Origin: Alphaproteobacteria bacterium 65-37
GTDB taxonomy: Bacteria > Pseudomonadota > Alphaproteobacteria > Reyranellales > Reyranellaceae
Direction: 5' to 3'
Assembly (NCBI GenBank): GCA_001897995.1
Contig: MKRV01000315.1
Span: 545-64,544, forward strand
DNA: 64,000 bases
Numbering within the stretch: the first letter of the stretch is position 1; the number at the start of each line of letters is the position of its first letter. Shown here piece after piece: positions 30,164 to 57,541 of this stretch. The notes beneath the pieces are model-generated. The model saw only the letters and a program-made list of their open reading frames with translations. It searched no databases and was not told where the DNA came from. The position numbers and the translations under genes were made by a program.

Positions 30164-30365
30164 TCGAGGTCAGGTCCATTGTGGCGTGCGTTGGGCCACC
30201 TTTTCCTGCGGCAATAGGGCGGCATAAAGCCCCGGGAATATGGACATAAATTCTTGCTTATATGTTGATGGCACGCGTTGAGGCCCTGCCGGGCCGCTGT
30301 TATGACACGCCCGCTTTCGCATTCGCCTCGCTTTCCCAGACCGTTTGCCAGACCAGGAGCGCCAC

Positions 30366-31757: not shown

Positions 31758-31814
31758 AGCAGCGTCTCACTAGCCGCCCACAGGGGCGTACATGCTAAAA
31801 GTCGGCATCGAAAG

Positions 31815-32258
31815 ATGCCGACTTTTTCTTTGCCCCTTGCCGACGAAGCCGCCACCGAGCGGCTGGGCGCCGCACTCGCCGCCCGGCTGCGGCCACGCGA
31901 CGTCGTGGCGCTCGAGGGCGGTCTCGGCGCCGGCAAGACCACGCTGGCGCGCGCCATCCTGCGCGCCGCCGCCGGCGATCCGGCGCTGATCGTGCCCAGC
32001 CCGACCTTCACCCTGGTCGAGGTCTACGAGACCCCCGCCGCGTCGTGGTGGCATTTCGATCTCTATCGCCTGGAACAGCCCGAGCAGGTCTTCGAACTGG
32101 GCTGGGAAGAAGCGCGCGCCGACGGCGTGGCGCTCGTCGAATGGGCGGAGCGGCTGGGGCCGCTCCTGCCGCGTGAACGGCTCACGGTTCGTCTCGCCAT
32201 CGCGGGCGAGGGCCGGCATGCCATCCTGGAGGGAGAAGCTCGTTTTGGCGACGTCTGA
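31815..32258 (+). CDS. tsaE: t6A biosynthesis ATPase TsaE
   Basis: LEGGLGAGKTT, VPSPTFTLV, HFDLYRL, LVEW. Confidence 0.95.
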   Translation: MPTFSLPLADEAATERLGAALAARLRPRDVVALEGGLGAGKTTLARAILRAAAGDPALIVPSPTFTLVEVYETPAASWWHFDLYRLEQPEQVFELGWEEARADGVALVEWAERLGPLLPRERLTVRLAIAGEGRHAILEGEARFGDV

Positions 32259-33249: not shown

Positions 33250-33938
33250 TCCGGACTGCGATGATCCTGGCGGCCGGGCGCGGTGAGCGCATGCGGCCCC
33301 TCACCGACTCCACGCCCAAGCCGCTGATTCCGGTGGCCGGCCGGTCGATGCTCGAACGCTCGATGGATCGATTGCAGCGCCACGGCGTTCAGAACATCGT
33401 GGTGAACGTCCATCATCTCGGCAGCCAGATCGCCGATCGTGTCGGCGGTCGCGCCCGCATCATTCACGAGGACCGGCTGCTCGATACCGCGGGCAGCGTG
33501 CGCAACGCGCTGCCGCTGCTCGGCAACGGGCCGTTCTTCGTGCTGAACGGCGACGGGCTCTGGCGCGACGGTGAAAGCTCGATGCTGGGCCGTCTCGAAG
33601 CCGCTTGGGATCCACGACGGATGGATGCCCTTCTGCTGCTGCATCCGCAGGCCAGTGCGATCGGCCACGAGGACGGCGGACGGGGCGACTACTATCTCGA
33701 ACCCGACGGCCGGGCACGCCATCGCGGCACGGCGCAGACCGCGCCTTATCTGTTCGCCAGCGTTTCGATCTGCGATCAGCGGCTGTTCCAGGGCACGTCC
33801 GAAGGCCCGTTGTCGCTGGTGAAGCTGTGGCACCGCGCCGAGCAGGCTGGCCGGCTGCAGGCGCTGGTGCATGACGGCCAATGGTTCCATATCGGCACGC
33901 CGCAGGCGCTCGCCGAAGCAGAACGCGTGCTGGGATGA
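33246..33938 (+). CDS. murU: MurNAc-1-phosphate uridylyltransferase MurU
   Basis: AMILAAGRGERMRPLT..PKPLI, VVNVHHL, LNGD, WFHIGTP. Confidence 0.87.
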   Translation: MIRTAMILAAGRGERMRPLTDSTPKPLIPVAGRSMLERSMDRLQRHGVQNIVVNVHHLGSQIADRVGGRARIIHEDRLLDTAGSVRNALPLLGNGPFFVLNGDGLWRDGESSMLGRLEAAWDPRRMDALLLLHPQASAIGHEDGGRGDYYLEPDGRARHRGTAQTAPYLFASVSICDQRLFQGTSEGPLSLVKLWHRAEQAGRLQALVHDGQWFHIGTPQALAEAERVLG

Positions 33939-40810: not shown

Positions 40811-42103
40811 CTAGCCGTTGCGGACCAGCACTTCGCCGGCAAGGTAGAGCGAACCACAAATGAGAACCCGCATCGGCGCGGGCTGGGTGGCCAGGAGGTC
40901 TTCCAGCGCCGCGCCGATGTCGTTTGCGGGGACGCAATCGAGACCCACATCGGCCGCCTTGGCGCAGGCCTCGTGGGGCGTGTAGGCCGCATGGCCTTCG
41001 GGGAACGGCACTGCGCGCGCGGCTGTAGCGTAGCGCGCGAGCGGCCGCAGGAAGCCCGAGGCGTCCTTGGTCGTCTGCATGGCGAAGATCAGGTAGAGCG
41101 GCAGCGCTGCCGGCTCCTTTGCCCACTCCGCCGCCATGCGGCCAAGCGCGATGCCACAATCTTCGTTGTGGCCGCCATCGAGCCAGAGTTCGCAGCCGGG
41201 CGGCAGAGAGCCTGGCAGCGGCCCCTTCGTGAGACGTTGCAGGCGCGCCGGCCACTCGACGGACGCGAGCCCCTTGCGGATCGCGGTGTTGCCAATGTCG
41301 AAGCGCGCCGCCCGCAGACGCTCGATGCAGGCGACGGCGGTCGCAGCGTTATCGATCTGATGTACCCCCACCAGCGCAGGGGCGGGCAGATCGAGCGTGA
41401 GGAGATCGCTTTCGTAGCGGAAGCCCTGCTCCTGCGGCGTCACCTGCCACTCGTGACCCATGCGGAACAAGGGCGCCGCGAGCTTGGCCGACTCGGTCTC
41501 GATTACCTGTGCACTCACCTCGCGCTGGCGGCCGATCACGGCGGGTGTCGCGCGTTTGATGATGCCCGCCTTCTCCCAGGCGATGCCTTCGAGCTTGTCG
41601 CCCAGAAAGCCCGTATGATCGTAGCCGACCGGCGTGATGGCCGACAAAGCAGGTTCGATCACGTTGGTGCTATCGAAGCGGCCACCCATGCCGACCTCGA
41701 TGATGCCGAGTTCGGCCGGCACGCGCGAGAACGCCAGGAGTGCGAGTGCCGTTGTGATGTCGAAGAAAGAAATCGGTGTGTCGCCATTGGCCTCTTCGCA
41801 TTCCGTCAGCATGTCGTCGAGGTCGTCGTCCTCGATCAGCTGACCGGCAATCCTGATCCGCTCGTTGAAGCGGACCAGATGCGGCGAGGTGTAGACGTGC
41901 ACCCGGTAGCCGGCGGCTTCGGCCATCGCCCGCAGGTAGGCGACGAGCGAGCCTTTGCCGTTGGTGCCGGCGACATGGACCAGCGGCGGCAGCTTCTTTT
42001 CGGGTGAACCCAGCGCCTTCAGCAGGCGCTCGATACGTTCCAGCCCGAGGGTGATCACCCTCGGATGGTGAGCCATCAGGCGCTGGACAATGGCGTCGCT
42101 CAC
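40811..42103 (-). CDS. folC: Folylpolyglutamate/dihydrofolate synthase
   Basis: HVAGTNGKGS, YTSPHL, IEVGMGGRFDSTN, EKAGIIK, WPARLQ, LDGGHN. Confidence 0.96.
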   Translation of the reverse strand: MSDAIVQRLMAHHPRVITLGLERIERLLKALGSPEKKLPPLVHVAGTNGKGSLVAYLRAMAEAAGYRVHVYTSPHLVRFNERIRIAGQLIEDDDLDDMLTECEEANGDTPISFFDITTALALLAFSRVPAELGIIEVGMGGRFDSTNVIEPALSAITPVGYDHTGFLGDKLEGIAWEKAGIIKRATPAVIGRQREVSAQVIETESAKLAAPLFRMGHEWQVTPQEQGFRYESDLLTLDLPAPALVGVHQIDNAATAVACIERLRAARFDIGNTAIRKGLASVEWPARLQRLTKGPLPGSLPPGCELWLDGGHNEDCGIALGRMAAEWAKEPAALPLYLIFAMQTTKDASGFLRPLARYATAARAVPFPEGHAAYTPHEACAKAADVGLDCVPANDIGAALEDLLATQPAPMRVLICGSLYLAGEVLVRNG

Positions 42104-42110
42104 CGGCGGC

Positions 42111-43001
42111 TCAGCGGCCGGCGACGGCCAGGCCGCGGCCCTCGGCGATCATCGGATCCATGAACAACGAGATCATGCGGATCAGGGTCTCGCGCATCTT
42201 GTGGCGATGCACGACGGCATCGACCATGCCGTGCTCGAACAGATACTCCGCGCGCTGGAAGCCTTCCGGCAGTTCTTGACGAATCGTGTCCTGGATGACG
42301 CGCGGACCGGCGAAACCGATCAGCGACGCCGGCTCGGCGAGATGGACGTCACCCAGCATGGCGAACGAGGCCGACACGCCGCCGGTCGTCGGATCGGTCA
42401 GCACCACGATATAGGGCAGGCCTGCCGATTTGACCTTGCGCACGGCAATGGTGGTGCGCGTGAGCTGCATCAGCGACAGGATACCCTCCTGCATGCGCGC
42501 GCCGCCCGAGGCCGAAAAGACGACCAGCGGCGCCTTGCGCGCGACGGCGAGGTCGGCGGCCATCACCAGCCCCTCGCCCACGGCCGTGCCCATCGAGCCG
42601 CCCATGAAGCCGAAATCGAGCAGCGCCACGATGCTGAGCCGGCTGCCCATCAGGCCGCTCGCGACGACCAGTGCGTCGGTCGAGCCCTGGGCGGTCGCCT
42701 GCGCCTCCTTGAGCTTGGCGTCGTAGCGCTTGGTGTCGCGGAACTTCAGCGGATCGACCGGCACGCGCGGCAGCGGGTGCAGCTCGTATTTGCCCTCGTC
42801 GAAAAGGTGCGGCAGCCGCTTCAGCGGCCGGAGCCGCATGTGGTGGCCGCAATGGTTGCAGACTTCCTGGTTGGCTTCCCAATCGCGCGTGAACAGCATC
42901 TGTTCGCACTTGGGGCACTTCACCCAGAGATTGTCCGGTGTCTCCTTGCGGGCGACCAGGGCGCGCAGCTTCGGCCGGACGAAATTGGTCAGCCAGTTCA
43001 T
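42111..43001 (-). CDS. accD: Acetyl-CoA carboxylase carboxyltransferase beta subunit
   Basis: LWVKCPKC...CNHC, FMGGSMG, SGGARMQEG, DPTTGGVSASFA, GFAGPRVI. Confidence 0.97.
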   Translation of the reverse strand: MNWLTNFVRPKLRALVARKETPDNLWVKCPKCEQMLFTRDWEANQEVCNHCGHHMRLRPLKRLPHLFDEGKYELHPLPRVPVDPLKFRDTKRYDAKLKEAQATAQGSTDALVVASGLMGSRLSIVALLDFGFMGGSMGTAVGEGLVMAADLAVARKAPLVVFSASGGARMQEGILSLMQLTRTTIAVRKVKSAGLPYIVVLTDPTTGGVSASFAMLGDVHLAEPASLIGFAGPRVIQDTIRQELPEGFQRAEYLFEHGMVDAVVHRHKMRETLIRMISLFMDPMIAEGRGLAVAGR

Positions 43002-43037
43002 GGCGGCGGTATCGCACGAATGGTCATGGCGGCCAAG

Positions 43038-44252
43038 TCAGCGCCAGAAGCCCGAGAAAGGTGCCGCGAAATCCCCAGGTTTCTTCACTTCGCAGAACGA
43101 TTTCCGCGCGCGGTAGTCGGCGCAGAGTTTCTGCGCCACTGCGGGCTCGAGATCGGCGATGATGGCGGCCTGGCGGGTCACCTTGTTGGAGGTGACCGGC
43201 AGGATGTACTCCTTGCCGAGGGTCGCGGATCCCAGGGTGCCCAGCCGCGCCTGCCCGGCGTCGAAGGCGTTTCGCGCCGTCCGCCAGTCGCCGTAGGTGC
43301 CGAGCCATACCGCATCGCCCGGCATGTCGTAACGGATGGTGCCGCACTCGCCGTAGGGCAGCACGGTTGCCGGCCCGCCTTCGCCGTCGCGCAGCTGCCA
43401 GACCTTGGGGCGGCTGCCGGCGGTCTTCAGCGCAAAGGCTTCGTCGAACAGGCGTGTCAGGAATTCGTCGCGCAGATCGGCGCGGCGGAAGCCGAACGCC
43501 ACCGCCACCAGTCGCCGCCCGTCGCGCACGGCCGTCCCTACGATGTTGAAGCCGGAGGCGCAGATGAAGCCGGTCTTCATGCCCTCGGCATAGGGCGCGT
43601 AGAGATCGAGGAACTTCAGGCCCGGACCGATCTTGGCGTTGCCGATGAAGAACTCCTGCGTCCGGAAGTAGCCGTAGTACTGCGGGAAGTCCTTGATCAG
43701 GGCGAGCGCCAGCACCGCCATGTCGCGTGCCGTCGTCATTTGGGCTGCGTCCGGAAGCCCGTTGGCATTGCGGAACTGCGTCGCCGCCATGCCGAGCCGC
43801 GCCGCGGTTTCCGTCATGCGCTGTGCGAACGCAGGTTCGGAGCCCGAGATGCGCTCGCCAAAGGCAGTCGCGACGTCATTGGCCGAGCGGGCGACCAGTG
43901 CCTGCAGCCCCTGTTCGACCGTGATCGACTGGCCGGCCGCCAGCACCAGCTTGGAGGCCGGCTTGGCGCGGGCATTCTCGCTGAAGCCCAGCGTCCCGCC
44001 GAGCTGCAGGCGACCGGCCTTCAGTTCCTCGAAGACGATGTAGATCGTCATCATCTTGGTGAGGGAAGCCGGATACCAGTAGGCACCGGCATTGCGTTCG
44101 AGCAGCACCTCGCCCGTGGCGACATCGACCGCAAGGTAGGGACCGGCTTGCACGGGCCCTGACGGCGAGGCCACGGTTGCGAGCTGGGCCTGGGCGGGGG
44201 CCGCCAGGAGGCCGAGCAGGCCGAGAACGCACGACAGGAAACGCGTTTTCAT
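43038..44252 (-). CDS. D-alanyl-D-alanine carboxypeptidase (S11) with a C-terminal SPOR-like extension
   Basis: YPASLTK (SxxK), RSAND (SxN), MKTGFICASGFN (KTG); signal peptide. Confidence 0.87.
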   Translation of the reverse strand: MKTRFLSCVLGLLGLLAAPAQAQLATVASPSGPVQAGPYLAVDVATGEVLLERNAGAYWYPASLTKMMTIYIVFEELKAGRLQLGGTLGFSENARAKPASKLVLAAGQSITVEQGLQALVARSANDVATAFGERISGSEPAFAQRMTETAARLGMAATQFRNANGLPDAAQMTTARDMAVLALALIKDFPQYYGYFRTQEFFIGNAKIGPGLKFLDLYAPYAEGMKTGFICASGFNIVGTAVRDGRRLVAVAFGFRRADLRDEFLTRLFDEAFALKTAGSRPKVWQLRDGEGGPATVLPYGECGTIRYDMPGDAVWLGTYGDWRTARNAFDAGQARLGTLGSATLGKEYILPVTSNKVTRQAAIIADLEPAVAQKLCADYRARKSFCEVKKPGDFAAPFSGFWR

Positions 44253-45625: not shown

Positions 45626-46459
45626 TCAGGCCTTGCGGACGCCGCGCACGCCGTCGGCCAATGCCCGGATGTAGGCGAAGACGCCCGGCACCAGGTCGGG
45701 CTTGGCTTTTCCGTTGTCGTCGAGGCCCGCTTTCACGCGATCGACGATCGCCGAGCCCACGACCGCCGCGTCGGCGTGGCGCGCAATGGCGGCGGCCTGG
45801 TCGGGGGTCTTGATGCCGAAGCCCACGCCCACCGGCAGCTTGGTGTGGCGCTTGATGCGCTCGACGTGCGTGCGCACGGCCTCTTCAGACGCCGACTTGG
45901 TGCCGGTGATGCCCAGCACCGAGACGAAATAGACGAAGCCCGAGGCGTATTTGAGCACCGCCGGCAGGCGCTTGTCGTCGGTCGTCGGCGCCGTCAGCAG
46001 CACCGTGTCGAGGCCGTTGGCCACGGCATGCGGCTTCAGCTCGTCGGCTTCCTCGGGCGGCAGGTCGACCAGAATGAAGCCGTCGATTCCTGCGGCGGCC
46101 GCTTCCTTGCAGAAGCGCTCGGCGCCGCGCTGGTAGATCAGGTTGTAGTAGCCCATCAGCAGGATGGGCGTGTCGTTGTCGCCGGTCTCCTTGCGGAAGC
46201 GGCGCACCATGTCGAAGGTGGCATCGACGGTGATGCCGGCCTTGAGCGCGCGCTGGCCGGCGTGTTGGATCGACGGCCCGTCGGCCATCGGATCGGTGAA
46301 CGGCATGCCGAGCTCGATCAGGTCGGCGCCGGCGGCCGGCAGCCCCTTCAGGATCTGGAAGCCGACGTCGATATTGGGGTCACCGGCGGTGATATAGGTC
46401 ACCAGGCCGGCGCGCTTGTCGGCCTTGAGCTGGGCGAAGCGCTTCTCGATGCGGCTCAT
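45626..46459 (-). CDS. trpA: Tryptophan synthase alpha subunit
   Basis: MSRI..., YITAGDP, IELGMPFTDPMADGPSIQ, YFVSVLGITG, VGFGI, VVGSA. Its ATG overlaps the trpB stop. Confidence 0.97.
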   Translation of the reverse strand: MSRIEKRFAQLKADKRAGLVTYITAGDPNIDVGFQILKGLPAAGADLIELGMPFTDPMADGPSIQHAGQRALKAGITVDATFDMVRRFRKETGDNDTPILLMGYYNLIYQRGAERFCKEAAAAGIDGFILVDLPPEEADELKPHAVANGLDTVLLTAPTTDDKRLPAVLKYASGFVYFVSVLGITGTKSASEEAVRTHVERIKRHTKLPVGVGFGIKTPDQAAAIARHADAAVVGSAIVDRVKAGLDDNGKAKPDLVPGVFAYIRALADGVRGVRKA

Positions 46460-47673
46460 CAGATCTTCACTCCCAGACGCTCGGCAATCTGCGGCACGTC
46501 CTTGTCGCCGCGCCCCGAGAGGTTCATCACCAGGAGATTGTCCTTGGACAGGCTGGGCGCGAGTTTGATCGTGTGCGCCAGCGCGTGCGACGATTCGAGG
46601 GCGGGAATGATGCCTTCGAGCTTGCAGAGAAGCTGGAACGCCTCGACCGCCTCGTCGTCGGTCGCCGCGACGTACTCGACGCGCCCCTTCTCCTTCAGCC
46701 AGGCGTGCTCCGGCCCGATGCCGGGATAGTCGAGGCCGGCCGAGATCGAATGCGCCTCGGTGATCTGGCCTTCCTTGTCCTGCAGAAGATAGGTGCGATT
46801 GCCGTGCAGCACGCCGGGGCGGCCGCCGGTCAGCGACGCGGCATGCTCGCCGGTCTCGACGCCGCGGCCCGCCGCCTCGACACCGATGATGCGCACGCCC
46901 TGGTCGTCGAGGAAGGGATGGAACAGGCCCATGGCGTTCGAGCCGCCGCCGATGCAGGCCACCAGCGTGTCGGGCAGACGGCCCTCGGCCTCCATCATCT
47001 GCTTGCGCACCTCGTCGCCGATCACGCACTGGAAGTCGCGCACCATCGCCGGATAGGGATGCGGCCCCGCCACTGTGCCGATGCAGTAGAAGGTCGTCTC
47101 GCAGGTCGCCACCCAGTCGCGCAGCGCCTCGTTCATCGCGTCCTTCAGGGTCGAGGCGCCGGCCGTCACCGGCCGCACCTCGGCGCCCAGCATCTTCATG
47201 CGAAACACGTTGGGGGCCTGGCGCTCGACGTCGACCGAGCCCATGAACACCACGCAGGGAATGTCGAACAGCGCGCAGGCCGTGGCGGTGGCGACGCCAT
47301 GCTGGCCCGCCCCGGTCTCGGCGATCACCCGCGTCTTGCCCATCCGCTTGGCGAGCAGGACCTGGCCCAGCACATTGTTGATCTTGTGGCTGCCGGTGTG
47401 GTTCAGCTCGTCGCGCTTCAGGTAGATCTTGGCGCCGCCCAGCTTCCCGGTCAGACGCTCGGCGAAGTAGAGCGGGCTCGGCCGGCCGGCATATTGCGTC
47501 AGCAGATACTTCAGCTCGCCCTGGAACTGCGGGTCGACTTTGGCCTCGTTGTAGGCCTTCTCCAGCTCGAGGATCAGCGGCATCAGGGTTTCGGCGACAT
47601 AACGGCCGCCGAAAAGACCGAAATGCCCGCGTTCATCAGGGCCGGTGCGAAAACTGTTGGGCGTGCTGGACAT
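46459..47673 (-). CDS. trpB: Tryptophan synthase beta subunit
   Basis: [65 protein letters not shown]. Confidence 0.98.
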
Positions 47674-47697
47674 TGCTCTTCCTGTCGGGACGGGCGG

Positions 47698-47726
47698 TCT
47701 TAGCAATCCCGGCAGGGGTCGGTCAA
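47698..47726 (-). promoter_or_regulatory. Putative sigma70 promoter for trpBA
   Basis: Minus strand TTGACC-N17-CTAAGA, about 25 nt upstream of the trpB ATG. Confidence 0.45.
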
Positions 47727-47781
47727 AAGTCCTCGGAGAGCCCGCTCGAGCCCTCTGGGGGCCGTCCGGCCTCGCAAATCG

Positions 47782-48726
47782 TCAGCTGCGTACAATGCGG
47801 GTGCCGGCCTCGCCGGCGATGGCTCGGCCCATATTCTCGATATCGGTGATGATCCCCTCGCCGTCGCAGGCCGCGACGTAGTCCATGACCGCTGCCACCT
47901 TCGGCCCCATCGACCCCTTGCCGAACTGACCCTCGTTCATGTAGCGGGCGGCCTCGACATGAGGCAGGCGGGAGAGCCATTTGACGTCCGGCTTGCCAAA
48001 ATTGATCGCCACCTGGGGCACCGCCGTGGCGATCAGGAGCTTCCCGGCCTTGAGCTGCCGCGCGAGCAGCGACGAGGCAAGATCCTTGTCGATCACCGCC
48101 TCACGGCCCACCAGGCTGCCGGCGACGTCGGTCACCACCGGAATGCCGCCTCCGCCGCAGGCGATAACGATATGGTCGTTGTCGAGCAGGGCACGGACGG
48201 TTTCGACCTCGATCACCTCCTGCGGCTGCGGTGAGGCCACGCAACGGCGCCAGCCGCGCCCCGTCTCCTCCATCAGCGACCAGCCGTTGCGCATGGCCAG
48301 CGCCTCGGCGACGTCCTTGGTCATGATCGAGCCGATGGGCTTGGTCGGGTTGGCGAAGGCGGTGTCTGCAGGATCGACCCGCACCTGGGTGACGACAGTC
48401 GCGACCGGCTTCTTCAATCCGCGCCGGCTCAGTTCGTTGACGAAGGCGCGCTGGAACATCACGCCGATCGCCCCTTGCGTGTCGGCGGTCGCGTAATCCA
48501 TCGGCACCACCGGCACCTCGGCGGCGGCGATCTCGGAGCGGCGCAGGATGTAGCCGACCTGCGGACCATTGCCATGGGTCAGCACCACTTGCCAGCCGGC
48601 GACAGCGACATCGACCACATATTGCGCCGTGCGGGCCGCGGCCAGCGCCTGATCGGGGATCGATGTGCCGCCGCCCTCGGAGGCCAGGGCGTTGCCACCA
48701 ACCGCGATCACTGCGACGTTGCTCAT
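47782..48726 (-). CDS. arcC: Carbamate kinase
   Basis: VIAVGGNAL, LTHGNGPQVG, DTQGAIG, VVTQVRVD..D.AF.NPTKPIG, GGGGIP, EAVIDKD, GSMGPKV. Confidence 0.95.
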   Translation of the reverse strand: MSNVAVIAVGGNALASEGGGTSIPDQALAAARTAQYVVDVAVAGWQVVLTHGNGPQVGYILRRSEIAAAEVPVVPMDYATADTQGAIGVMFQRAFVNELSRRGLKKPVATVVTQVRVDPADTAFANPTKPIGSIMTKDVAEALAMRNGWSLMEETGRGWRRCVASPQPQEVIEVETVRALLDNDHIVIACGGGGIPVVTDVAGSLVGREAVIDKDLASSLLARQLKAGKLLIATAVPQVAINFGKPDVKWLSRLPHVEAARYMNEGQFGKGSMGPKVAAVMDYVAACDGEGIITDIENMGRAIAGEAGTRIVRS

Positions 48727-48736
48727 GGCGCGCTCC

Positions 48737-50149
48737 TCAAATATCGAAGGTCATGCTTGCAGCCAGCGCCGATACCGCCTGGGTGAAGCAGGCGAGCGGC
48801 GCATAGGTCAGCCCCGCACCGACCTGGCCGATACCGGCCTGGCGGTGGGCGATGCCGGTGTTGATGACCGGTTGAATGCCGGTATCGGCGACGAGACGCG
48901 CATCGATGCCCGCCGGCGAGCCGGTGAAATCGAGCGCCGGCAAGGTGAAGGCCGCATTCTGGCCGAGCGTGATGTGCAGCATGCGCAGCGTATTGGCCAG
49001 CGCATCCCGCGGCGTGCCTCCGACGAACTGCACGATGGCCGGCGCCGCCGCCATGGCGAAGCCGCCGACGCCCGCCGTTTCCGTGATGGCGCTGTCGCCG
49101 AGGTCGCGCGCGGCATCGGCCTGGCCGTAGCCGGGAAAGAACAGCCCCTCGATGAACGGCGCCTCGGCGGTGAACCAGCGGTCGAGGCCGGAAATCTTGA
49201 TCCCGAACTCGACGCCGTTGCGCGCCATCGCCGTGACCAAGGTCGAGCACGGCACACCATGGGCCGCGTCGAGCATGGCTTTGCAGGCGGCCATCGAGAG
49301 GTTGAGGAAGAAGTGATCGTTGCCGGCAACGAAGGTGAGCGTCTCCGCGACCGCCTTGGCGTCGAGCCGCTTGGAGGCGAGCGCCGTCGTGGTCAGCTTG
49401 CGGAACAACAGCGAAGAGGCGGCGGCATTGCGGTTGTGCACCTCGTCGCCCATGTGCAGCGCCTGGGCCATGATCGGCTTCAGATCCAGGCCACCCATTT
49501 CCTCGACGATCACCGCCAAGGTCGGCCCCATCCTCTCGGCCATCCATTTCAGGCGAGCGATCACGTCCGGGCCGTTGGCACCGAAGCGCAGCACCTTGCC
49601 GAGACCTTCGTTCATGTTCGAATAGGCCTCGCTGCCGGACGCCGTGTCGCGCACGATCCATACCGGCATGCTCGGGCTGGTGATGCCGGCCATCGGACCG
49701 ACAGCACGATGGTGGTGGCACGGCTCCAGACGGATGCTGCCGGCTTCGACCAGGCGGCTTGCCTCGTCGAGATTCGCGGCCCAGCCCTCGAACAGGACGG
49801 CGCCCAGCACCGCGCCCTGCTGCGGGCCGCACATGTTCTCCCACTTCACCGGCGGGCCTGAATGCAGGATGATCTTGCCGTCCATGTCCGGCAGCGCCTC
49901 ACGGGCAGTCTTGACGCCGACGAGCACCGGCTGGGCAGCGAGGAAGCGGCCATAGGCCACCTTGTTGGCCTCGGCGATGCGCGGATCGCCGGTCAGAAGC
50001 GCGAGATTCCAGGCATCCTTCGGGTTGCCTCCCGCCGGCGGCTGCCATTGCAGATCGGTGGCTTTCGCGCCCTTTTCACGGATGACGTCACCGAAGCTCG
50101 CAAGCCCGATATTGATGACGTTGAGATCCTGGCTGATGAGATCGGCCAT
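48737..50149 (-). CDS. DUF1116 protein (YahG/YlbE/AllG family)
   Basis: LNVINIG...WQPPAGGN, ILHSGPP..W..MCGPQQGA, PCHHHRAVGPMAGITSPSMP, MGDEVHNRN, NDHFFLNLSM, DLGDSAITET.G.GG, GILPVINTGI-type tail. Start is ATG 50149 or GTG 50158. Confidence 0.92.
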   Translation of the reverse strand: MADLISQDLNVINIGLASFGDVIREKGAKATDLQWQPPAGGNPKDAWNLALLTGDPRIAEANKVAYGRFLAAQPVLVGVKTAREALPDMDGKIILHSGPPVKWENMCGPQQGAVLGAVLFEGWAANLDEASRLVEAGSIRLEPCHHHRAVGPMAGITSPSMPVWIVRDTASGSEAYSNMNEGLGKVLRFGANGPDVIARLKWMAERMGPTLAVIVEEMGGLDLKPIMAQALHMGDEVHNRNAAASSLLFRKLTTTALASKRLDAKAVAETLTFVAGNDHFFLNLSMAACKAMLDAAHGVPCSTLVTAMARNGVEFGIKISGLDRWFTAEAPFIEGLFFPGYGQADAARDLGDSAITETAGVGGFAMAAAPAIVQFVGGTPRDALANTLRMLHITLGQNAAFTLPALDFTGSPAGIDARLVADTGIQPVINTGIAHRQAGIGQVGAGLTYAPLACFTQAVSALAASMTFDI

Positions 50150-50154
50150 GGCGA

Positions 50155-51714
50155 TCACCCCTTGATGTTTTCGAGAACGGCGCGAACGAGAGCGACCGCT
50201 TCGGCATTGCTGAAGGAGACATCGACACCGGCGGCCCGCAGGATCTCGGCCTGCCGGTCCATATGCTGCGGATCGGCATCGGTGCCGCAGATCTGGGCGA
50301 CGAAGACCGGCGCACCCTTTCCGCCGGCCGCGGCCCGCGCCTTTTCGATGGCCGGCGCCAGAACGCTCGCCGGATTTTCATGGGCGCCGTAGCCGAGCAC
50401 GACGTCGAGCAGGATGATCGCGGTTTCGGCGTCCGCCGATTCCTGACTGATGCGCTCCAAGCGCAGCGCCGGATCGATCATCGGGTGCGGTCTGCCGCGC
50501 GTGAAGTCGTCGTCGCCGAGATCCATGATCGTATGGCCGCTGCTCCGCCACAGATCGGGCATGCGCGCCGTCTGCTTGGTCGGCGTGTTCGATTGCAGGG
50601 CGGGCAGGACATCCTGCAACAGGATCAGCGCCTCGTAGCAGAAGGTGCCGCCGCTATAGAGGCCGCGCAGGTACTTGCGGCCCAACCCAAGTGACGCGGC
50701 AAGCCGCTTCGCCCGACCCTGCAGCTCAGCGCTGGCGCCATGGTCGGAGCGGAACGTCGCCTTGCCCGATTTCAGCGCCTCGACAGCACGCCGCGCAGCC
50801 TCCTCCAGCGTCAGCGCACAATCGAAGCCCCGTGACTCGACGTCGGCCAGCGCGGCGCCGAGGAAGCACACGACCACCGGCTTTCCGGTGGCACGGGCCG
50901 CAGCCAGCACCTTGTCCGCCACCGCCTTGGCCGGCGGCTTGGAGATCAGCACGATCACCCTGGTTTCCGGATCGCCACCGAGCTGCTTGAGAGCCGTGAG
51001 CATGGTCAGGCCGCCGACCGCTTCCGAAAGGTCGTGGCCGCCGGTGCCGATCGCCTGGGTCACCCCCTCGCCCGCCTGATGGATCAGGCAGGTCACCTGC
51101 TGCAGGCCGGTGCCCGAGGCGCCGACAACGCCGATCCCGCCCTTGCGCACCACGTTGGCGAAGGCGAGCGGCACGCCGTTGATGATTGCGGTGCCGCAGT
51201 CCGGGCCCATCACCAGAAGGTTGCGGGCATGGCCGTAGCGCTTGATGGCAATCTCCTCGTCCACCGGCACGTTGTCGGAGAAGATCATCACATCGAGGCC
51301 GAGCTTCAGCGCCTTCATCGCCTCGGCGGCAGCGAACGCACCAGGCGTCGAGATCAGCGCGAGATTGGCACCCTTGGCCTCGTCTTCGAGCGCCATGACG
51401 ATGGCCCGCGGGGGCACCTTCTGCACGGTGCCGTCACCGCCCTTGGCCTTCTCCGACAGTGCTGCCTCGGCAAAATCGAGGGCGGTTTGCAGGCTGGCCT
51501 CTTCGCCGCGCACGACGAGCAACATGTCGTTGGGGCGAGCGGCAGGCCGTTGATCTATCAACCCGGCTTCGACCATCAAATCTATGTTGGCGTCGGTTGC
51601 CATCTGGGCCGAGGCGGCCTCGATGCCGGGCAATTGCGCGATCTTGGTCGACAGCTGCATCAGCGCGACCGAGTCCCGGTACATGTTGGGGAAGAAATGA
51701 ACGAGCGGGGTCAT
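50155..51714 (-). CDS. fdrA: FdrA/YahF family acyl-CoA-synthetase-like protein
   Basis: NMYRDSVALM, ALISTPG, MIFSDNV, LVMGPDCGTAII, GASGTGLQ, GTGGHDLS, ISKPP, GLYSGGT, DLGDDDFTRGRPHPMIDP, LDVVLGYG. Confidence 0.93.
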   Translation of the reverse strand: MTPLVHFFPNMYRDSVALMQLSTKIAQLPGIEAASAQMATDANIDLMVEAGLIDQRPAARPNDMLLVVRGEEASLQTALDFAEAALSEKAKGGDGTVQKVPPRAIVMALEDEAKGANLALISTPGAFAAAEAMKALKLGLDVMIFSDNVPVDEEIAIKRYGHARNLLVMGPDCGTAIINGVPLAFANVVRKGGIGVVGASGTGLQQVTCLIHQAGEGVTQAIGTGGHDLSEAVGGLTMLTALKQLGGDPETRVIVLISKPPAKAVADKVLAAARATGKPVVVCFLGAALADVESRGFDCALTLEEAARRAVEALKSGKATFRSDHGASAELQGRAKRLAASLGLGRKYLRGLYSGGTFCYEALILLQDVLPALQSNTPTKQTARMPDLWRSSGHTIMDLGDDDFTRGRPHPMIDPALRLERISQESADAETAIILLDVVLGYGAHENPASVLAPAIEKARAAAGGKGAPVFVAQICGTDADPQHMDRQAEILRAAGVDVSFSNAEAVALVRAVLENIKG

Positions 51715-51754
51715 GGGAACTCCTCGAGAGCAGTCGGTCGCGGACCTGCTGCTC

Positions 51755-52609
51755 CTATGAGAGGGGAATGAAATCGGAATGGCCGGCGGCGAGGGCGAGG
51801 CCGGTCACGAGGCCGGCGGCCTGATCGATGCCGGAACTGTGCCCGCGCGCGGCAAGGCGTCTGAAGGCGCCGGGTATGTCGCCCTCCGGTTCGGCGATGG
51901 CCGCGAAGAATCCGTGCAGCAGACCGGTCCACCAGGGCGTGCAGGCCTGGGCGAGGTAGTCCTTGCTGGCAGACGTCGTGCGATCGAGATGCGGCATCAC
52001 CCCGCGACGCACGGTTTCGAAGCGCGCATCACCCGCGGCCGCAAGCGCGCCCAGCAAACCGCACAACAGATCGTCGCCGCTCGGCGTGAGGCCGGGGCCG
52101 AGGCCAACCAGCCGATGCAGGGCCTGATCCGCTGCTTCCCTCCGATGCAGCTTGCGGCACAGATCGGCGAAGCGCAGATACGCCGCCGTCCGCGTCATCT
52201 CTGGTGCCAATCCCCGCATCGCGGCGTCGAGGTGTGCCTTCGCCTCGAGGAGCCCCGGCCGCCAGCCGTCGGCGGGAACACAGCCCGGAAAGCTCGGCGA
52301 CTGCCACAGGGCGGCATTTCTGCGGTAGTCGATGCGGAAGCCGGAACCGGAAAGGACGCCCCGGTCTGCCGCAACGCGCCGGCCGACATGCAGGTGCGGA
52401 TGCAGCCTGCCCCACTCTCCTGCGAAGGCAGTGATGATACGCATGCCTTGCTCTTCCGACCCGGCGAGCAGAGTGAGACGGCGCCCGTCGTCGAGCGAGA
52501 CGGTGCAGGCATGGGCAAACACCGCCTCGACCGCCCCCGCGAAGGGCGAAGCCGCGATATCCGCACCGACATCTCTTGCCTGCACGTCGATCACAGCGCC
52601 CTCCGTCAC
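51755..52609 (-). CDS. DUF2877 protein (YahE/YlbF/AllH family)
   Basis: [34 protein letters not shown] 52609 overlaps the upstream TGA. Confidence 0.85.
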
Positions 52610-53271
52610 GCGATGGCGTCGATGACGGCGGTGGACGCCGCCACCCAGCCGAAGATACCGCCCTGTGCCTTGATCATTTCCAGGGCACTGCGGTTGAATT
52701 CGGGGAAATAGGAGCCGACGGCGTCCGACACCACGAGGCATTCGAAACCTCGATCATTGGCCTCGCGCACCGTGGTATTGACACAGACCTCCGTGGTCAC
52801 GCCGCAGACGATCAGGGTCCTGATGCCGCGATTGCGCAGCATCAACTCGAGATCGGTGGCGAAGAACGCGCCCTTGCCCGGCTTGTCGATCACCGGTTCG
52901 TTCGGCGCCGGATAAAGCTCGGGAATGATGTCGTGCCCCTTCTCCCCGCGGATCAGCACGCGGCCCATCGGACCCTCGTCGCCGATGCCGACCTTCAGGC
53001 CGCCCCGCGCCTTCTTCGAGGGTGGGCAATCCGTCATGTCGGGCGCATGGCCCTCGCGGGTATGAATGACGAGCATCTTCGCCTTGCGTGCTGCTTCCAA
53101 CACCGCCTTGCACGGAGCGATAGACGCGCGCAGCAGCGAGACGTCGTTGCCGAGCATGGAGCCGAAGCCGCCGGGCTCGAGGAAATCGCGCTGCATGTCG
53201 ATGATAACGAGCGCGGTGCTCGCCGGATCGAACACCAGATCGTAAGGCTCAGCCCTGAAAACCCTGGTCAT
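52606..53271 (-). CDS. Cysteine hydrolase (isochorismatase fold), triuret hydrolase TrtA-like
   Basis: Catalytic D25 (IIDMQRDF), K130 (DKPGKG) and C163 (TTEVCV). Residues F36, L40, N42, E161, Y188 and I206 match the TrtA-type rather than BiuH-type pattern as I recall it. Confidence 0.85.
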
Positions 53272-53356
53272 GACGCCCCCTCGCGTTCGGTTCGTGCGGT
53301 GCGCATTGCAAGCGGAAGGGAGCGCATCCCCTCCACGTGCTCGTTCATTTGTCCGT

Positions 53357-53737
53357 TCACTTGCCCTTGGACGCCATGTAGGCGCGCCAGTCGCCGAAGC
53401 GCGAAATGTCGACATGCTCCGGCTTGATCTTGTCCGCGGGGTACAGGATGCCGTCGACCACCCGGCCGTCGTCGAGCTTGACCGGTCCGCAGTAGAGGTG
53501 CGGCGGCTCACCGGCCTCGACCTTGGCCCAGGTCTCGTCACTCATTCTGTACATCTCGCCGGCAACCGAGACGCCGCCGCTTTCCACCTCGTGCATGCCC
53601 GGATGGACATCGTTGATGGAATAGATGCGGTAGACCGGCGCCGTGCGGAACGCGCCGAGGAATTCGGCGCCTTCCAGATTCTTGTGCAGGGCGAGCCCCT
53701 TCATCAGGGTGCCGTTGACGAACAGTGTTTTACTCAT
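53357..53737 (-). CDS. Stand-alone GGCT-fold protein resembling the allophanate hydrolase C-terminal domain
   Basis: [43 protein letters not shown], and C-terminal [11 protein letters not shown], similar to the AtzF/Dur1,2 tail DITxFGGWRAY. Confidence 0.75.
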
Positions 53738-55338
53738 GGATGCACAAGACCTTCTTCATCGTTGTCGATTGGAGACCAGCTGATGCCCTCGCCGTCCTTC
53801 AGCTGACGCCAGGCGAGGAACGTGAACAGCAATGCGGCCATGACATAGCCCGCACTCACGGCAGGCGACGCATTGATCGCAAGATGCGAACCATTGATGA
53901 AACCGAAGAACGACAACACAGCGGCGAACGAGGCAAAGACTGCGGCCCAGTTGAAGCGACGGTCGATCACGAACACCGCAATCGCACCGAGCATCAGGCC
54001 GGCGAGAACCGCTCCGCCGCCTGCAAGCTCCATGCCGTGATAGACAACGCCGTTGCTGGCCAGAGCCTTGACCGTCTCGGGCGGAACCGGGGTCGTGGCG
54101 ATACCCGCGGCGTTCAGCGCACCGGAGACCTGACCGCGCGCCCATTCGGCGATGTTCGGCACCAGCGCCAGCACGATGGCCGGCGCATGGCGCCGTGGAC
54201 AGGCCTGGAACGCCTGCGCCCCGATCACCAGACCGATGAACAGCAGGATCGGCAGGATCGCGACCAGCGGCACGACCGACAGGAAGAACGCAGCCAGGCC
54301 GAAGAAGCAGACGATGGACACGAAGATGCCGGTGAACAGCGAGTAGCCAACACGTCCGCCCATCGCTTTCCAGCCCGGATGGCCGATATAGACCGCCGGT
54401 GGGAACGGCGAGCCGAGCAGCGCGCCGACCACGCCGCCCAGTCCGTCGGCGAACAGCACGTAGCGCAGGTCGTACTCGTCGCCGCCGGCGGCCGCCGATT
54501 CGACGTTGTTCATCGCTTCGGTGAAGTTGTAGATGCCGAGCGGAATGGCGGTGACCAGCAGCGGCCAGACCTTGTCCATCGGCACCGAAAACACGTCGAA
54601 CGAGAACATCGGCAGGTGCAGCGACACCAGATCCACCGAATTGCTGACCTGCTTCGGTGCCATGAGATCGGTCCAGCCCATCCACACGCCGGTCCAGGCC
54701 ATCAGGCCGCCGAGCACGATGATGACCAGGCCACCGGGTAGGCCGAACGGCAGGCGCACGCGACCGACCCACGAGATCAGCACGATCATGAAGCAGATCA
54801 GCCCGATCCAGGCGGTGTCGAAGATCAGGAAGGCCGGGCGCATCGAGATAAAGGCGATGGAGACGCCGGCCAAGGTGCCGAGCATCGCGGCGCGCGGCGT
54901 GTATTTGCGGATCGCCGGGCCGACCAGGATGCCGCACAGCGTGATGCCGCCGACGATCATCGCCCAGATCAGACCGAGCTTCCAACCGAGGATGGCATCG
55001 TTGGTCGCGATATAGGTCGGCAGCATCACCACGAAGGTGACGATGAACATCTGCGGCACGCTCGGCCCGTAGGGCAAGGCCGCGACGTCGTTGCGGCCGT
55101 CAGCCACGCCGCGCCGGTAGGCGAGCCAGGCGTAGTAGAGATTGCCGATCGGCAACGCAATGCCGAGGGCCGGCAGGATGCGCCCAAAGACGATGTCGTT
55201 CGGTAGTTTTGCAACGCCGAGACAGAGGGAGGAAAGAACCAGGACGTTCAGAAGGACGTTGGTGAACAACCCGAAAAAGGCATTCATGTCCCCGCTCGTC
55301 CAAAGCTTGGGGCGGGTTCTAGAGACTGCGGCGTCCAT
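53734..55338 (-). CDS. Multi-TM permease, distant NCS2/AzgA (xanthine/uracil/vitamin C permease-like) family
   Basis: About 14 hydrophobic segments; GDMNAFFGLFTN, ALPYGPSVP, TPRAAMLGTLAG, NNVESAAAGGDEY, SPFPPAVYIGHPGWKAMGGRVGY. Start at ATG 55338. Confidence 0.75.
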   Translation of the reverse strand: MDAAVSRTRPKLWTSGDMNAFFGLFTNVLLNVLVLSSLCLGVAKLPNDIVFGRILPALGIALPIGNLYYAWLAYRRGVADGRNDVAALPYGPSVPQMFIVTFVVMLPTYIATNDAILGWKLGLIWAMIVGGITLCGILVGPAIRKYTPRAAMLGTLAGVSIAFISMRPAFLIFDTAWIGLICFMIVLISWVGRVRLPFGLPGGLVIIVLGGLMAWTGVWMGWTDLMAPKQVSNSVDLVSLHLPMFSFDVFSVPMDKVWPLLVTAIPLGIYNFTEAMNNVESAAAGGDEYDLRYVLFADGLGGVVGALLGSPFPPAVYIGHPGWKAMGGRVGYSLFTGIFVSIVCFFGLAAFFLSVVPLVAILPILLFIGLVIGAQAFQACPRRHAPAIVLALVPNIAEWARGQVSGALNAAGIATTPVPPETVKALASNGVVYHGMELAGGGAVLAGLMLGAIAVFVIDRRFNWAAVFASFAAVLSFFGFINGSHLAINASPAVSAGYVMAALLFTFLAWRQLKDGEGISWSPIDNDEEGLVHP

Positions 55339-56023
55339 GCCGTTTCTCCTTGTTGTCGACGCAGGAATGAGACCGTGCCAACAAATGCATGATGGTGATC
55401 TCGACGTTGTCGAGGCCGCTGGAGATGTTCTGGCGTAGCGCCTGGGCGGCCCCGGTCTCATCGCCGGCGGCGATGCGATCAAGAATGGCGGTGTGTTCGT
55501 CGCCGGTCGATTGCGCACGGGCGGTGTGCGAGAAATCGAACGCGCGGAACGCATGGAGGCGCTCGTTGATGCGCCGGATCTGCTCCATCATCAGCTGGTT
55601 GCCATGGGCCGCGACGAGGTCGGCATGGAAAGCCTCGTCGAGACTGGCAAGGGTCTGCCGGGAGAGGTCCTCGAGCTTTTCGGGGTTCGCCCACTGGTCG
55701 CGCAACCGCGCTTCGACATCCTTCGGCAAGCCGTTTCGGGCGAGCCCCCGCACCGCCTGAACCTCGATGGCGAAGCGGAACTCGTAGAGATCCTCGACGT
55801 CGGCCAGCAACAGCTGGCGCACGCGGTAGCTTTGATGCGGATCGCGCTCCAGCAAGCCTTCGGCAGCGAGTTCGGTCAGGGCCTGGCGGATCGGCGAGCG
55901 GCTGACGCCGAACTCGGCGCACAGGCTCTCCTCGGTCAGCTGATGGCGCGGCGGGTAGGACCAGTCGAGCAGCCGGCGGCGCAGCGTCAGAACGATCTGT
56001 TTAACAGCCGAGGTACGCGCCAC
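55319..56023 (-). CDS. GntR family (FCD/FadR-type) transcriptional regulator
   Basis: LTEESLCAEFGVSRSPIRQAL HTH, DLYEFRFAIE, LDEAFH, EHTAILDRI. GTG start with GAGGAGG RBS. Confidence 0.92.
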   Translation of the reverse strand: MARTSAVKQIVLTLRRRLLDWSYPPRHQLTEESLCAEFGVSRSPIRQALTELAAEGLLERDPHQSYRVRQLLLADVEDLYEFRFAIEVQAVRGLARNGLPKDVEARLRDQWANPEKLEDLSRQTLASLDEAFHADLVAAHGNQLMMEQIRRINERLHAFRAFDFSHTARAQSTGDEHTAILDRIAAGDETGAAQALRQNISSGLDNVEITIMHLLARSHSCVDNKEKRHGRRSL

Positions 56024-56073
56024 AGACCCCTCCTCGACAAAACGGCATCAGCCTCACCCCCTAATTGATGGAT

Positions 56074-56103
56074 ACTCTATTGTATTATTCTATTGTATAC
56101 AAT
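56074..56103 (-). promoter_or_regulatory. Sigma70 promoter overlapped by a GntR/FadR-type operator
   Basis: Minus strand TTGTAT-N17-TAGAGT. Perfect palindrome ATTGTATACAAT at 56092-56103 covers the -35 box, with an extra ATTGTAT half-site at 56079-56085. The patch is AT-rich. Confidence 0.75.
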
Positions 56104-56244
56104 GCAGGGAGACGAAAAATATCTATGCAGCACGCGACGGGGGCTTGCCGACGAAGGACGGCAAAACGCAACCGACGCTCAACAGGCTGGAATCATTGGT
56201 AAATAGTCGAACGAGGCGCCCGCGCGATGGCGCGAGCTACCTCC

Positions 56245-56282
56245 TTCTCCTCTCCCCGCTTCGACTATGGGGAGGAGGAGAA
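56245..56282. repeat. Imperfect inverted repeat (terminator or REP-like hairpin)
   Basis: TTCTCCTCTCCCC-N11-GGGGAGGAGGAGAA, downstream of the rid gene. Confidence 0.45.
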
Positions 56283-56337
56283 TTGCCCAAGGCCTCAGCC
56301 TCAGGCGCCTTTGAGAGAAAAATGTGCGGACGGCCGC

Positions 56338-56892
56338 TTAGCGTTTCTTCTTCCGGGCGGCCTTCTTCTTGGCCTTGGGCGCGGCTTTGCGCTTGGCGGC
56401 GGGCCGTGGTGCCGCAGCGCGGCGGGCGGGCGCGCTTTCAAGCTCGACGATCACCTCGATCTCGACTGGAATGCCGCGCGGTAGCGAGGCCATGCCAACC
56501 GCCGATCGGGCATGGCGGCCGCGCTCGCCGAACACCGTGACGAAGAGGTCGGAGCAGCCGTTGATCACTTCGGGCTGCTGGCCGAATTCGGGTACGGCAT
56601 TGACCATGCCCAGCACCTTGACCACGCGCTTCACCTTGTCGAGGTCGCCCAGCTCGGCCTTGAGCGCGGCCAGGATGCTGATGCCGACCGAGCGTGCGTG
56701 CTCATAGCCCTCCTCGACCGTGAAGTCGCGGCCGACCTTGCCGACCGGCAGCGGATGGCCCGGCAAGCCCGGGCCCTTGCCCGCCAAATACAGCAGGTTG
56801 CCGGTACGCACGGCGTTCACGTAGCTGCCCATCGGCGTCGTCGCCTTGGGCAGATCGATGCCGAGTTCCTTGAGCTTCTTTTCGACCTTCAT
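56338..56892 (-). CDS. Rid (YjgF/YER057c/UK114) family protein with a basic C-terminal tail
   Basis: GSYVNAVRTGNLLYLAG, VVKVLGMVN, INGCSDLF, GRHARSAVG..LP..PVEIE, followed by RRAAAPRPAAKRKAAPKAKKKAARKKKR. Confidence 0.92.
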   Translation of the reverse strand: MKVEKKLKELGIDLPKATTPMGSYVNAVRTGNLLYLAGKGPGLPGHPLPVGKVGRDFTVEEGYEHARSVGISILAALKAELGDLDKVKRVVKVLGMVNAVPEFGQQPEVINGCSDLFVTVFGERGRHARSAVGMASLPRGIPVEIEVIVELESAPARRAAAPRPAAKRKAAPKAKKKAARKKKR

Positions 56893-56902
56893 GGCTCCCC
56901 CT

Positions 56903-57541
56903 TCAGAGCGCCTTCACCCGGTCGAGGAAGGCGCGAATCAATTCGATTGATTTCACACCCCGGCTCACTTCGATACCAGAGGAAACGTCTACGGTCGGCG
57001 CGCCCGTGACGCGCACCGCTTCGGCGACATTGTCCGCCGTGAGACCACCGGCGAGCATCCAGGGCAGCGGCACGCTGCGGCCCGTCAGGATCGTCCAGTC
57101 GAAAGCCTTGGCATTGCCGCCGGGCAGAGCACCGCCGGCCACATCGAACATCAGCCGGTCGGCGACACCGGCATAGAGGGCGATGTCGCGCTCGACATCC
57201 TCGGGCCCCGCCACCTTGATCACCTTCATCACCGGCTTGCCGGTGCGCGCCTTGAGGGCCGCCACGCGCTCCGGCGTCTCCGAGCCGTGGAGCTGCAGCA
57301 GATCGATGGCGCCGGTCGCCAGCCGTTCGTCGATCAGCGCGTCGTCGGGATCGACGAACAGGCCGACCCTGCCGACATGCGCCGGCACCCGTGCCCCCAG
57401 CGCCCGCAGACGATCGAGCGACTCGATGTGGCGCGGCGACTTCGGAAAGGTGACGAAGCCGATCCAGCGCGCGCCGCCCGCAACGGCCGCGTCGATCGTC
57501 TCCGGCGTCGAGAGCCCGCAGATCTTGGCGTCGACCGTCAT
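56903..57541 (-). CDS. trpF: Phosphoribosylanthranilate isomerase
   Basis: AKICGLS, LLQLHGSETPERV, LMFD, GGNAKAFDW, LAGGL, VDVSSGIE. Confidence 0.96.
   Translation of the reverse strand: MTVDAKICGLSTPETIDAAVAGGARWIGFVTFPKSPRHIESLDRLRALGARVPAHVGRVGLFVDPDDALIDERLATGAIDLLQLHGSETPERVAALKARTGKPVMKVIKVAGPEDVERDIALYAGVADRLMFDVAGGALPGGNAKAFDWTILTGRSVPLPWMLAGGLTADNVAEAVRVTGAPTVDVSSGIEVSRGVKSIELIRAFLDRVKAL

Follow-up and report, generated by a model that had tools for sequence, protein, structure and literature searches.

Triuret and biuret are impurities of urea fertilisers and products of uric-acid oxidation and, to our knowledge, no route other than a purely hydrolytic one has been described for their breakdown. 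The operon considered here lies at positions 47782-56023 of a 64,000-nucleotide (nt) stretch of DNA from Alphaproteobacteria bacterium 65-37 (contig MKRV01000315.1; this whole stretch is referred to as the window) and combines a gene for a TrtA-type triuret hydrolase with genes for a three-subunit AllH/F/G-like module and a carbamate kinase. The first enzyme has its described counterpart in Herbaspirillum sp. BH-1, where TrtA, TrtB, BiuH and AtzF make up a purely hydrolytic route that yields no ATP (PMC7948467). The window operon lacks TrtB, BiuH and AtzF but has the putatively phosphorolytic module, the kinase and a free-standing AH_C protein. The module belongs to the same FdrA, DUF1116 and DUF2877 families as AllF-AllG-AllH of Escherichia coli K-12, which are likewise encoded next to a catabolic carbamate kinase, AllK; genetics and enzymology identified FdrA-YlbE-YlbF (AllFGH) as the oxamic transcarbamylase, converting oxalurate and inorganic phosphate (Pi) to oxamate and carbamoyl phosphate (PMC11326118). 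A second E. coli set, YahE-YahF-YahG with YahI, is of unknown function and has the same gene order as the window, DUF2877-FdrA-DUF1116-carbamate kinase, and the same domain split. The AH_C protein matches over its full length the C-terminal domain of AtzF and DUR1,2 (PF21986; PMC5770610), has no amidase domain and falls in a clade of its own.

An earlier note on this DNA, made from the sequence alone, knew of no described pathway with this combination. The gene combination has in fact been published, since trtA/biuH lie beside allFGHK in comammox Nitrospira and ammonia-oxidising archaea, where allFGHK was read as an oxalurate pathway (PMC12625717, 2025). The Nitrospira clusters contain the same gene families and an AllG that is 62-65% identical to the window AllG, but they have a BMP-type ATP-binding cassette (ABC) transporter and BiuH, and the free AH_C gene is unannotated in that paper. 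A similar island in avian pathogenic E. coli BEN2908 has been described as pyrimidine-related (PMC12928451). No paper proposing phosphorolysis of a triuret-derived compound was found in a full-text literature search.

Eight co-oriented, tightly packed genes on the minus strand were identified by open reading frame (ORF) calls and Pfam/NCBIfam profiles. They encode, in order of transcription, a GntR-family regulator, a permease, the free-standing AH_C protein (AHC), the TrtA-type hydrolase, the AllH-, AllF- and AllG-like subunits and the carbamate kinase. All the genes named in the earlier note are present in the order it gave, and profiles matched their families. We suggest, with slightly less than even confidence, that this is an operon for the uptake and breakdown of triuret in which energy would be kept as ATP through carbamoyl transfer from 1-carboxybiuret.

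The hydrolase (52606-53271, minus strand) is an isochorismatase-like cysteine hydrolase whose best PDB match is Herbaspirillum TrtA (6XIX, 285 bits), the BiuH structures giving 244 and 234 bits. It is 61.7% identical to TrtA but 52.6% identical to BiuH. The catalytic triad D24/K129/C162 and the ligands F29/K132/Q202 are all six identical to those of 6XIX. Mutagenesis has shown that six further residues, F35/N41/A134/E160/Y187/I205, set TrtA apart from BiuH (PMC7948467); the window hydrolase has them all (FNAEYI), whereas a BiuH encoded on another contig of the source genome, C260, reads YYSDTV. A tree of 133 sequences places the window hydrolase in a nested position within the TrtA clade, and the characterised TrtA lies inside the same clade, adjoining AllFG-linked Nitrospira sequences. 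The BiuH equivalog NF050097 is not reached (279 bits against a cut-off of 370). The window hydrolase would therefore be classed as TrtA by every sequence feature compared, and the assignment made in the earlier note is upheld by 12 of 12 catalytic and TrtA-specific residues as well as by the tree.

The three-subunit module consists of an AllH/YahE-like subunit (DUF2877; 51755-52594; PF11392), an AllF/FdrA/YahF-like subunit with CoA_binding and Ligase_CoA domains (50155-51714; NF004760, 492 bits against a cut-off of 433) and an AllG/YahG-like subunit (DUF1116; 48737-50158; PF06545, E = 9e-94), followed by a catabolic-type carbamate kinase (47782-48726; NF009007, 352 bits, cut-off 266), all on the minus strand. 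The kinase falls just under the arcC equivalog TIGR00746 (346 bits against a cut-off of 358); the genome encodes no other carbamate kinase. The four proteins are approximately 40-48% identical to E. coli AllFGH/AllK and to YahEFG/YahI. The identities of the AllF-like subunit (43% to YahF, 40% to AllF) and of the kinase (44% to YahI, 39% to AllK) are slightly higher to Yah than to All; the window AllG and its E. coli counterpart share 48% identity. AllF carries the invariant PHPMID motif (H410). As in AllFGH, three subunits of these types are encoded together with a carbamate kinase, and the presumed chemistry is the same, an N-acylurea and Pi giving an amide and carbamoyl phosphate and then ATP. 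The clade and domain architecture of E. coli AllG/AllF are not shared, however. The gene order is H-F-G instead of F-G-H, and a segment of about 50 amino acids (aa) that E. coli AllF carries at its C-terminus forms the N-terminus of AllG in the window, where residues 7-49 match the FdrA C-terminus. The partner genes also differ, being TrtA, AHC or AtzF and the GntR regulator, with no allantoin or AllD genes nearby.

A joint tree of 240 AllG sequences resolved three monophyletic groups, one around the window AllG (the window clade; 81 of 81 sequences falling together, support 0.89), one around E. coli AllG and one around YahG. The neighbouring genes divide in the same manner. No allantoin or AllD gene was found within 10 kb of any of the 80 closest AllG relatives of the window protein (61-95% identity; 0/80), whereas a control set of E. 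coli-type AllG had allantoin genes in 49 of 66 full-flank loci, that is loci with at least 8 kb on both sides. None of these 66 control loci contained TrtA, AHC, AtzF, a window-type permease or a window-type GntR. The best AllD-like match in the source genome is only 28% identical and is located elsewhere. YahG-type loci contain the ankyrin protein YahD in 70 of 70 cases and the amidohydrolase YahJ in 69 of 70, and TrtA, AHC and AtzF were absent from all 70. Neither YahD nor YahJ was found within 10 kb in the 80 loci of the window AllG clade or in the window operon itself. The H-F-G-kinase order and the Yah-type domain split are both found in the window, but AllG was rejected as a plain Yah-type protein because, though the architecture fits, the clade does not. 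On this evidence the window module is assigned to a third AllFGH-like subfamily, neither the characterised AllFGH type nor YahEFG, which is wired to TrtA. Serratia sp. H1w was found to have three paralogous FdrA/DUF1116/DUF2877 modules (loci L169, L209 and L283), a TrtA-linked one, an allantoin-linked All module and a Yah module, which argues for three different substrates.

The earlier note had made its proposal depend upon the linkage of TrtA to DUF1116 being conserved in other genomes. The linkage does hold, in at least 8 phyla: a TrtA-type gene is present in 36 of the 44 full-flank loci of the window AllG clade and a carbamate kinase in 43. The gene set is kept, in varied order, in Alpha-, Beta-, Gamma- and Deltaproteobacteria, Nitrospirota, Chloroflexota, Actinomycetota, Firmicutes and Spirochaetota, while the type of transporter differs between hosts (the window permease family, BMP-type ABC, NCS1 or NCS2). 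AHC lies directly upstream of TrtA in the window and its close relatives. Loci with only AtzF, AllFG and carbamate kinase had as recurrent neighbours an NCS2 permease beside AtzF and unrelated genes of coenzyme A (CoA) metabolism; no cyanuric acid hydrolase family recurred among their annotated neighbour families.

The free-standing AH_C (GGACT-like) protein of 126 aa (53357-53737, minus strand) matches PF21986 over its full length (E = 8.5e-32). It covers only the C-domain of AtzF (profile positions 441-563) and, having no amidase-signature N-domain, is not an AtzF. Free-standing AHC proteins form one clade apart from the AtzF C-domains and in our sample all were in AllFG loci. Window-type AHC replaces AtzF in these loci and never accompanies it: AtzF (15) or free AHC (24) was found in 39 of the 44 full-flank loci of the window AllG clade and both together in none. 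This strict alternation suggests that both remove the same product, allophanate. In AtzF itself, allophanate is reported to be turned into ammonium in two successive steps, the C-domain catalysing the second (PMC5770610). No amidase able to serve as a split AtzF N-domain was found in the Nitrospira flanks. The 126-aa protein was also considered as a TrtB and rejected, as TrtB groups with AtzH/HpxZ (PMC12625717, supplementary Fig. S11) and the window protein is an AH_C; AHC may nevertheless be a functional analogue of TrtB outside the TrtB family.

The first gene of the operon (55319-56023, minus strand) encodes a GntR-family regulator of the FadR/FCD subfamily (PF00392 + PF07729). A perfect 12-bp palindrome, ATTGTATACAAT, at 56092-56103 (no strand assigned) is its probable operator. 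It lies 69 nt upstream of the GntR start and occurs once in the window against 0.06 expected, with a second half-site, ATACAATAG, 13 nt downstream of it on the coding strand. Related loci, 2.59 Mb in all, contain 48 copies of the sequence TGTATACA. Of these, 34 lie at most 300 bp upstream of a GntR homologue, against 0.09 expected; 34 of the 56 GntR homologues in these loci have such a site. The winged helix-turn-helix and FCD domains and the palindromic operator TTGTATACAA of the t.GT.n.AC.a type, conserved upstream in related loci, are those of a GntR/FadR regulator, and in Rhodocyclaceae, Nitrospira, Chloroflexota and others a homologue stands at the head of the cluster. TGTATACA is also found immediately upstream of TrtA-permease pairs without AllFG (L022, L044, L048) and, in several Nitrospira loci, immediately upstream of AllF. 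The presence of the operator-like sequence before both TrtA and AllFGH-like genes is hard to reconcile with two unrelated pathways. The earlier note had placed the operon behind one promoter/operator with its outer end at 56103. The palindrome ends exactly there and the operator can be retained, but a simple sigma-70 consensus scan found no promoter for the operon.

In the whole 7.15-Mb genome TGTATACA occurs only 5 times. Two of the other sites, at C5:24660 and C5:24780 (120 bp apart), are beside a second FCD-type GntR gene and one, at C177:15546, is between an amidase gene and a gene for a solute-binding protein; these three show no link to the pathway and were rejected as parts of it. A further site is on C258.

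The permease (534 aa; 53734-55338, minus strand) gave no Pfam or NCBIfam match even at E = 10, Xan_ur_permease included, and does not fall within the NCS2/AzgA profile. It is named "AGZA family xanthine/uracil permease-like" by the Joint Genome Institute (JGI). An AlphaFold2 model (mean predicted local distance difference test score of 72) matched SVCT1, UraA and SLC26 with a probability of 1.0 and template modelling scores of 0.45-0.6, so the protein is likely to have a UraA-type 7+7 fold and may be a distant AzgA/NCS2-like transporter. Of the 80 closest TrtA relatives, 61 have a permease homologue no more than 10 kb away, mostly adjoining the TrtA gene. There are also natural permease-TrtA fusions (P0062, 771 aa, on 26 contigs, and P0071, 773 aa), in which the N-terminal part is 64% identical to the window permease and the C-terminal part 77% identical to the TrtA-type hydrolase. 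The tight linkage and the fusions make the permease a probable triuret importer. A homologue 38% identical to the permease lies between yahG and yahI in most enterobacterial yah clusters, namely 58 of 70 YahG-type loci (e.g. L263, L283, L284, L317, L324, L331). It is not present in the yah cluster of E. coli K-12, where yahH was tried as a permease remnant and no similarity was found.

The earlier note had argued from the lack of any allantoin gene, BiuH or AtzF in the window. The window does lack them, but the genome has BiuH and AtzF: contig C260 (positions 29600-37200; L009:5641-13143) carries a canonical biuret cluster of BMP-type ABC transporter, BiuH (416 bits, cut-off 370) and AtzF (790 bits), and no TGTATACA operator was found on this contig. 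A urease is encoded on contig C263. The argument from missing BiuH and AtzF is therefore valid only in other hosts. Four of the 5 genomes with the exact window architecture, those of Cupriavidus agavae ASC-9842, Uliginosibacterium sp. sgz301328 and two metagenome-assembled genomes (MAGs) of Rhodocyclaceae, have no true BiuH and AtzF, and all 5 have urease. AtzF is missing from 5 of 5 Nitrospira genomes with free AHC, BiuH and AtzF from a Chloroflexota MAG, and BiuH, AtzF and urease from Serratia sp. H1w and a Spirochaetales MAG. Where AtzF stands in place of AHC, urea carboxylase was found in 0 of 10 genomes, BiuH was missing in 7 of 10 and AtzE in 9 of 10. Five genomes (G006, G010, G050, G052 and G053) have TrtA, AtzF, AllFG and carbamate kinase but no BiuH, urea carboxylase or AtzE above cut-off. 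In these the only gap between the TrtA product and the AtzF substrate is the removal of one carbamoyl group, which is the type of reaction carried out by AllFGH. Given these genome-wide absences, placing the AllFGH-like complex downstream of TrtA is the most economical reading.

The pathway may then be envisaged as follows. The operon is probably repressed by the GntR regulator. Triuret would be imported by the permease and one of its terminal amides hydrolysed by the TrtA-type enzyme to give 1-carboxybiuret and NH3. In the novel step, the AllH-AllF-AllG-like complex would move the terminal carbamoyl group of 1-carboxybiuret to Pi, giving allophanate and carbamoyl phosphate. 1-Carboxybiuret is oxalurate with one NH inserted and we infer that the chemistry is closely analogous. 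The carbamate kinase would make ATP and carbamate, the latter decaying to NH3 and CO2. Free AHC probably decarboxylates allophanate to urea, usable by the C263 urease; AtzF would act at this point in other architectures and the C260 AtzF could also do so in the source genome. 1-Carboxybiuret itself is an unstable compound whose half-life is about 20 minutes (PMC7948467). More doubtful than the general reading is a specific form of it, in which the complex would be a 1-carboxybiuret:phosphate carbamoyltransferase trapping the unstable TrtA product and AHC an allophanate decarboxylase replacing AtzF, the whole constituting a BiuH/AtzF-free, ATP-yielding triuret pathway spread horizontally over at least 8 phyla including comammox Nitrospira.

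Several points weigh against breakdown of triuret through carbamoyl transfer from 1-carboxybiuret. The loci are not phylogenetically independent, approximately 17 of the 44 being from Nitrospira, and most of the comparison genomes are MAGs so that the absences fall short of proof. In the source genome itself the canonical hydrolytic route could finish the job, BiuH and AtzF being present on C260. The probable decarboxylation of allophanate to urea by AHC has no verifiable precedent, and production of urea would waste half of the nitrogen in urease-negative hosts such as Serratia sp. H1w. Finally, biuret or allophanate is possible as the substrate of the complex and, given the instability of 1-carboxybiuret, a free decarboxylase beside TrtA would also be in keeping with biuret as the actual substrate. 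On the same logic, the complex might convert biuret and Pi to urea and carbamoyl phosphate, with AHC taking the part of TrtB and decarboxylating carboxybiuret. Or it might convert allophanate to carbamate and carbamoyl phosphate, perhaps as a second cycle once carboxybiuret has been cleaved. Such a change of substrate seems to us rather improbable, although the position of AHC immediately upstream of TrtA in the window and close relatives and the presence of urease in all checked genomes of the exact architecture would be accommodated by it. The absence of BiuH from most hosts would also be expected if the complex replaces BiuH, and sequential phosphorolysis would give complete mineralisation in the urease-negative Serratia sp. 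H1w. With biuret as substrate, however, the in-cluster AtzF of loci lacking AHC has no source of allophanate, for there is no urea carboxylase in those 10 genomes and BiuH is missing from 7. With allophanate as substrate, 4 of the 5 genomes of the same architecture, having no BiuH, cannot make the substrate, and AtzF is redundant where present. The strict alternation of AHC with AtzF is easier to understand if the two proteins use up one and the same product.

Two unrelated pathways might simply be co-located, as they were read in PMC12625717, with TrtA, with or without AHC, feeding the C260 BiuH and AtzF, and AllHFG with the kinase being an oxamic transcarbamylase acting on imported oxalurate, another oxidation product of urate. 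The only characterised member of the family is indeed an oxalurate enzyme (PMC11326118), the two AllG proteins are 48% identical and the source genome has BiuH and AtzF. We nevertheless think co-location unlikely in view of the separation of the window clade from E. coli AllG, the contrast in allantoin or AllD genes (0/80 loci against 49/66 in the control) and the sharing of one operon and one operator by TrtA and AllF. Most hosts lack BiuH and AtzF, leaving TrtA with no continuation, and in Serratia sp. H1w the allantoin genes have a true All-type module next to them, in addition to the TrtA-linked one. It is less probable again that the hydrolase is TrtA-like by sequence but acts naturally on another carbamoyl-amide, some unknown ureide degraded via an N-acylurea acid and carbamoyl phosphate. 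The change of transporter type between hosts, the uncertain ecological abundance of triuret and an identity of only 62% to the sole characterised TrtA would all be compatible with this, but the six residues that separate TrtA from BiuH (PMC7948467) are all conserved and the characterised TrtA is within the clade, next to AllFG-linked Nitrospira sequences. The CoA_binding and Ligase_CoA domains and the NCBIfam name "acyl-CoA synthetase FdrA" could also be taken at face value, making the FdrA-like protein an acyl-CoA synthetase with no part in carbamoyl transfer. This is very improbable indeed, since E. coli FdrA-YlbE-YlbF has been assigned to oxamic transcarbamylase (PMC11326118) and 43 of the 44 full-flank loci with AllG also have a carbamate kinase.

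If the proposed triuret pathway is true, it would add a second substrate to the recently discovered three-subunit transcarbamylase family and offer a first clue to the YahEFG-type modules, which have long been orphans. The free AH_C family and the Pfam-less permease family would acquire functions, and the "allFGHK" genes of nitrifiers would be re-read from purine/oxalurate scavenging to ATP-yielding use of urea oligomers. The regulator-operator pair would be testable as a triuret sensor.

The junctions along the operon from GntR to the kinase are -20, -4, +85, +11, +40, -4 and +10 nt, taking AllH to start at 52594. The AllH ORF spans 51755-52741, but the start was moved because homologues begin at ORF residues 36-53 and GGAGG precedes a GTG at 52594, which is most likely the true start. 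Shine-Dalgarno-like purine runs were present at 6 of 7 starts checked, the AH_C gene being the exception. No terminator was found between the carbamate kinase gene and trpB.

The operon is an insertion of approximately 8.5 kb (47707-56337) between a RidA/YjgF-like gene (56338-56892, minus strand), which forms the left flank, and trpB (46459-47706, minus strand), which forms the right; both are outside the module. The flanks of the insertion take in 46459-47706 and 56338-57541. In 4 of 5 congeners examined the site is empty, with the RidA-like gene beside trpB, about 200 bp apart, in the order pyrF-trpF-ridA-trpB-trpA. No AllG homologue was found in the 18 congeners or 12 further relatives searched. 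The operon was acquired horizontally. The G+C content of the window is 64-72%. A 690-aa ORF at 42090-44162 (plus strand) has no Pfam match and may be an antisense artefact of the high-GC DNA. Directly upstream of trpB, at about 47710-47760 on the minus strand, is an inverted repeat, CCTGTCGGGAC...GTCCCGACAGG, which is conserved when aligned with L175 and L177 and has stayed with trpB at the insertion site, where it may serve this gene as a leader or regulatory hairpin. Between the operon and the RidA-like gene, where the insertion has its left edge, lies an imperfect inverted repeat, TTCTCCTCTCCCC / GGGAGGAGGAGAA, at 56245-56282.

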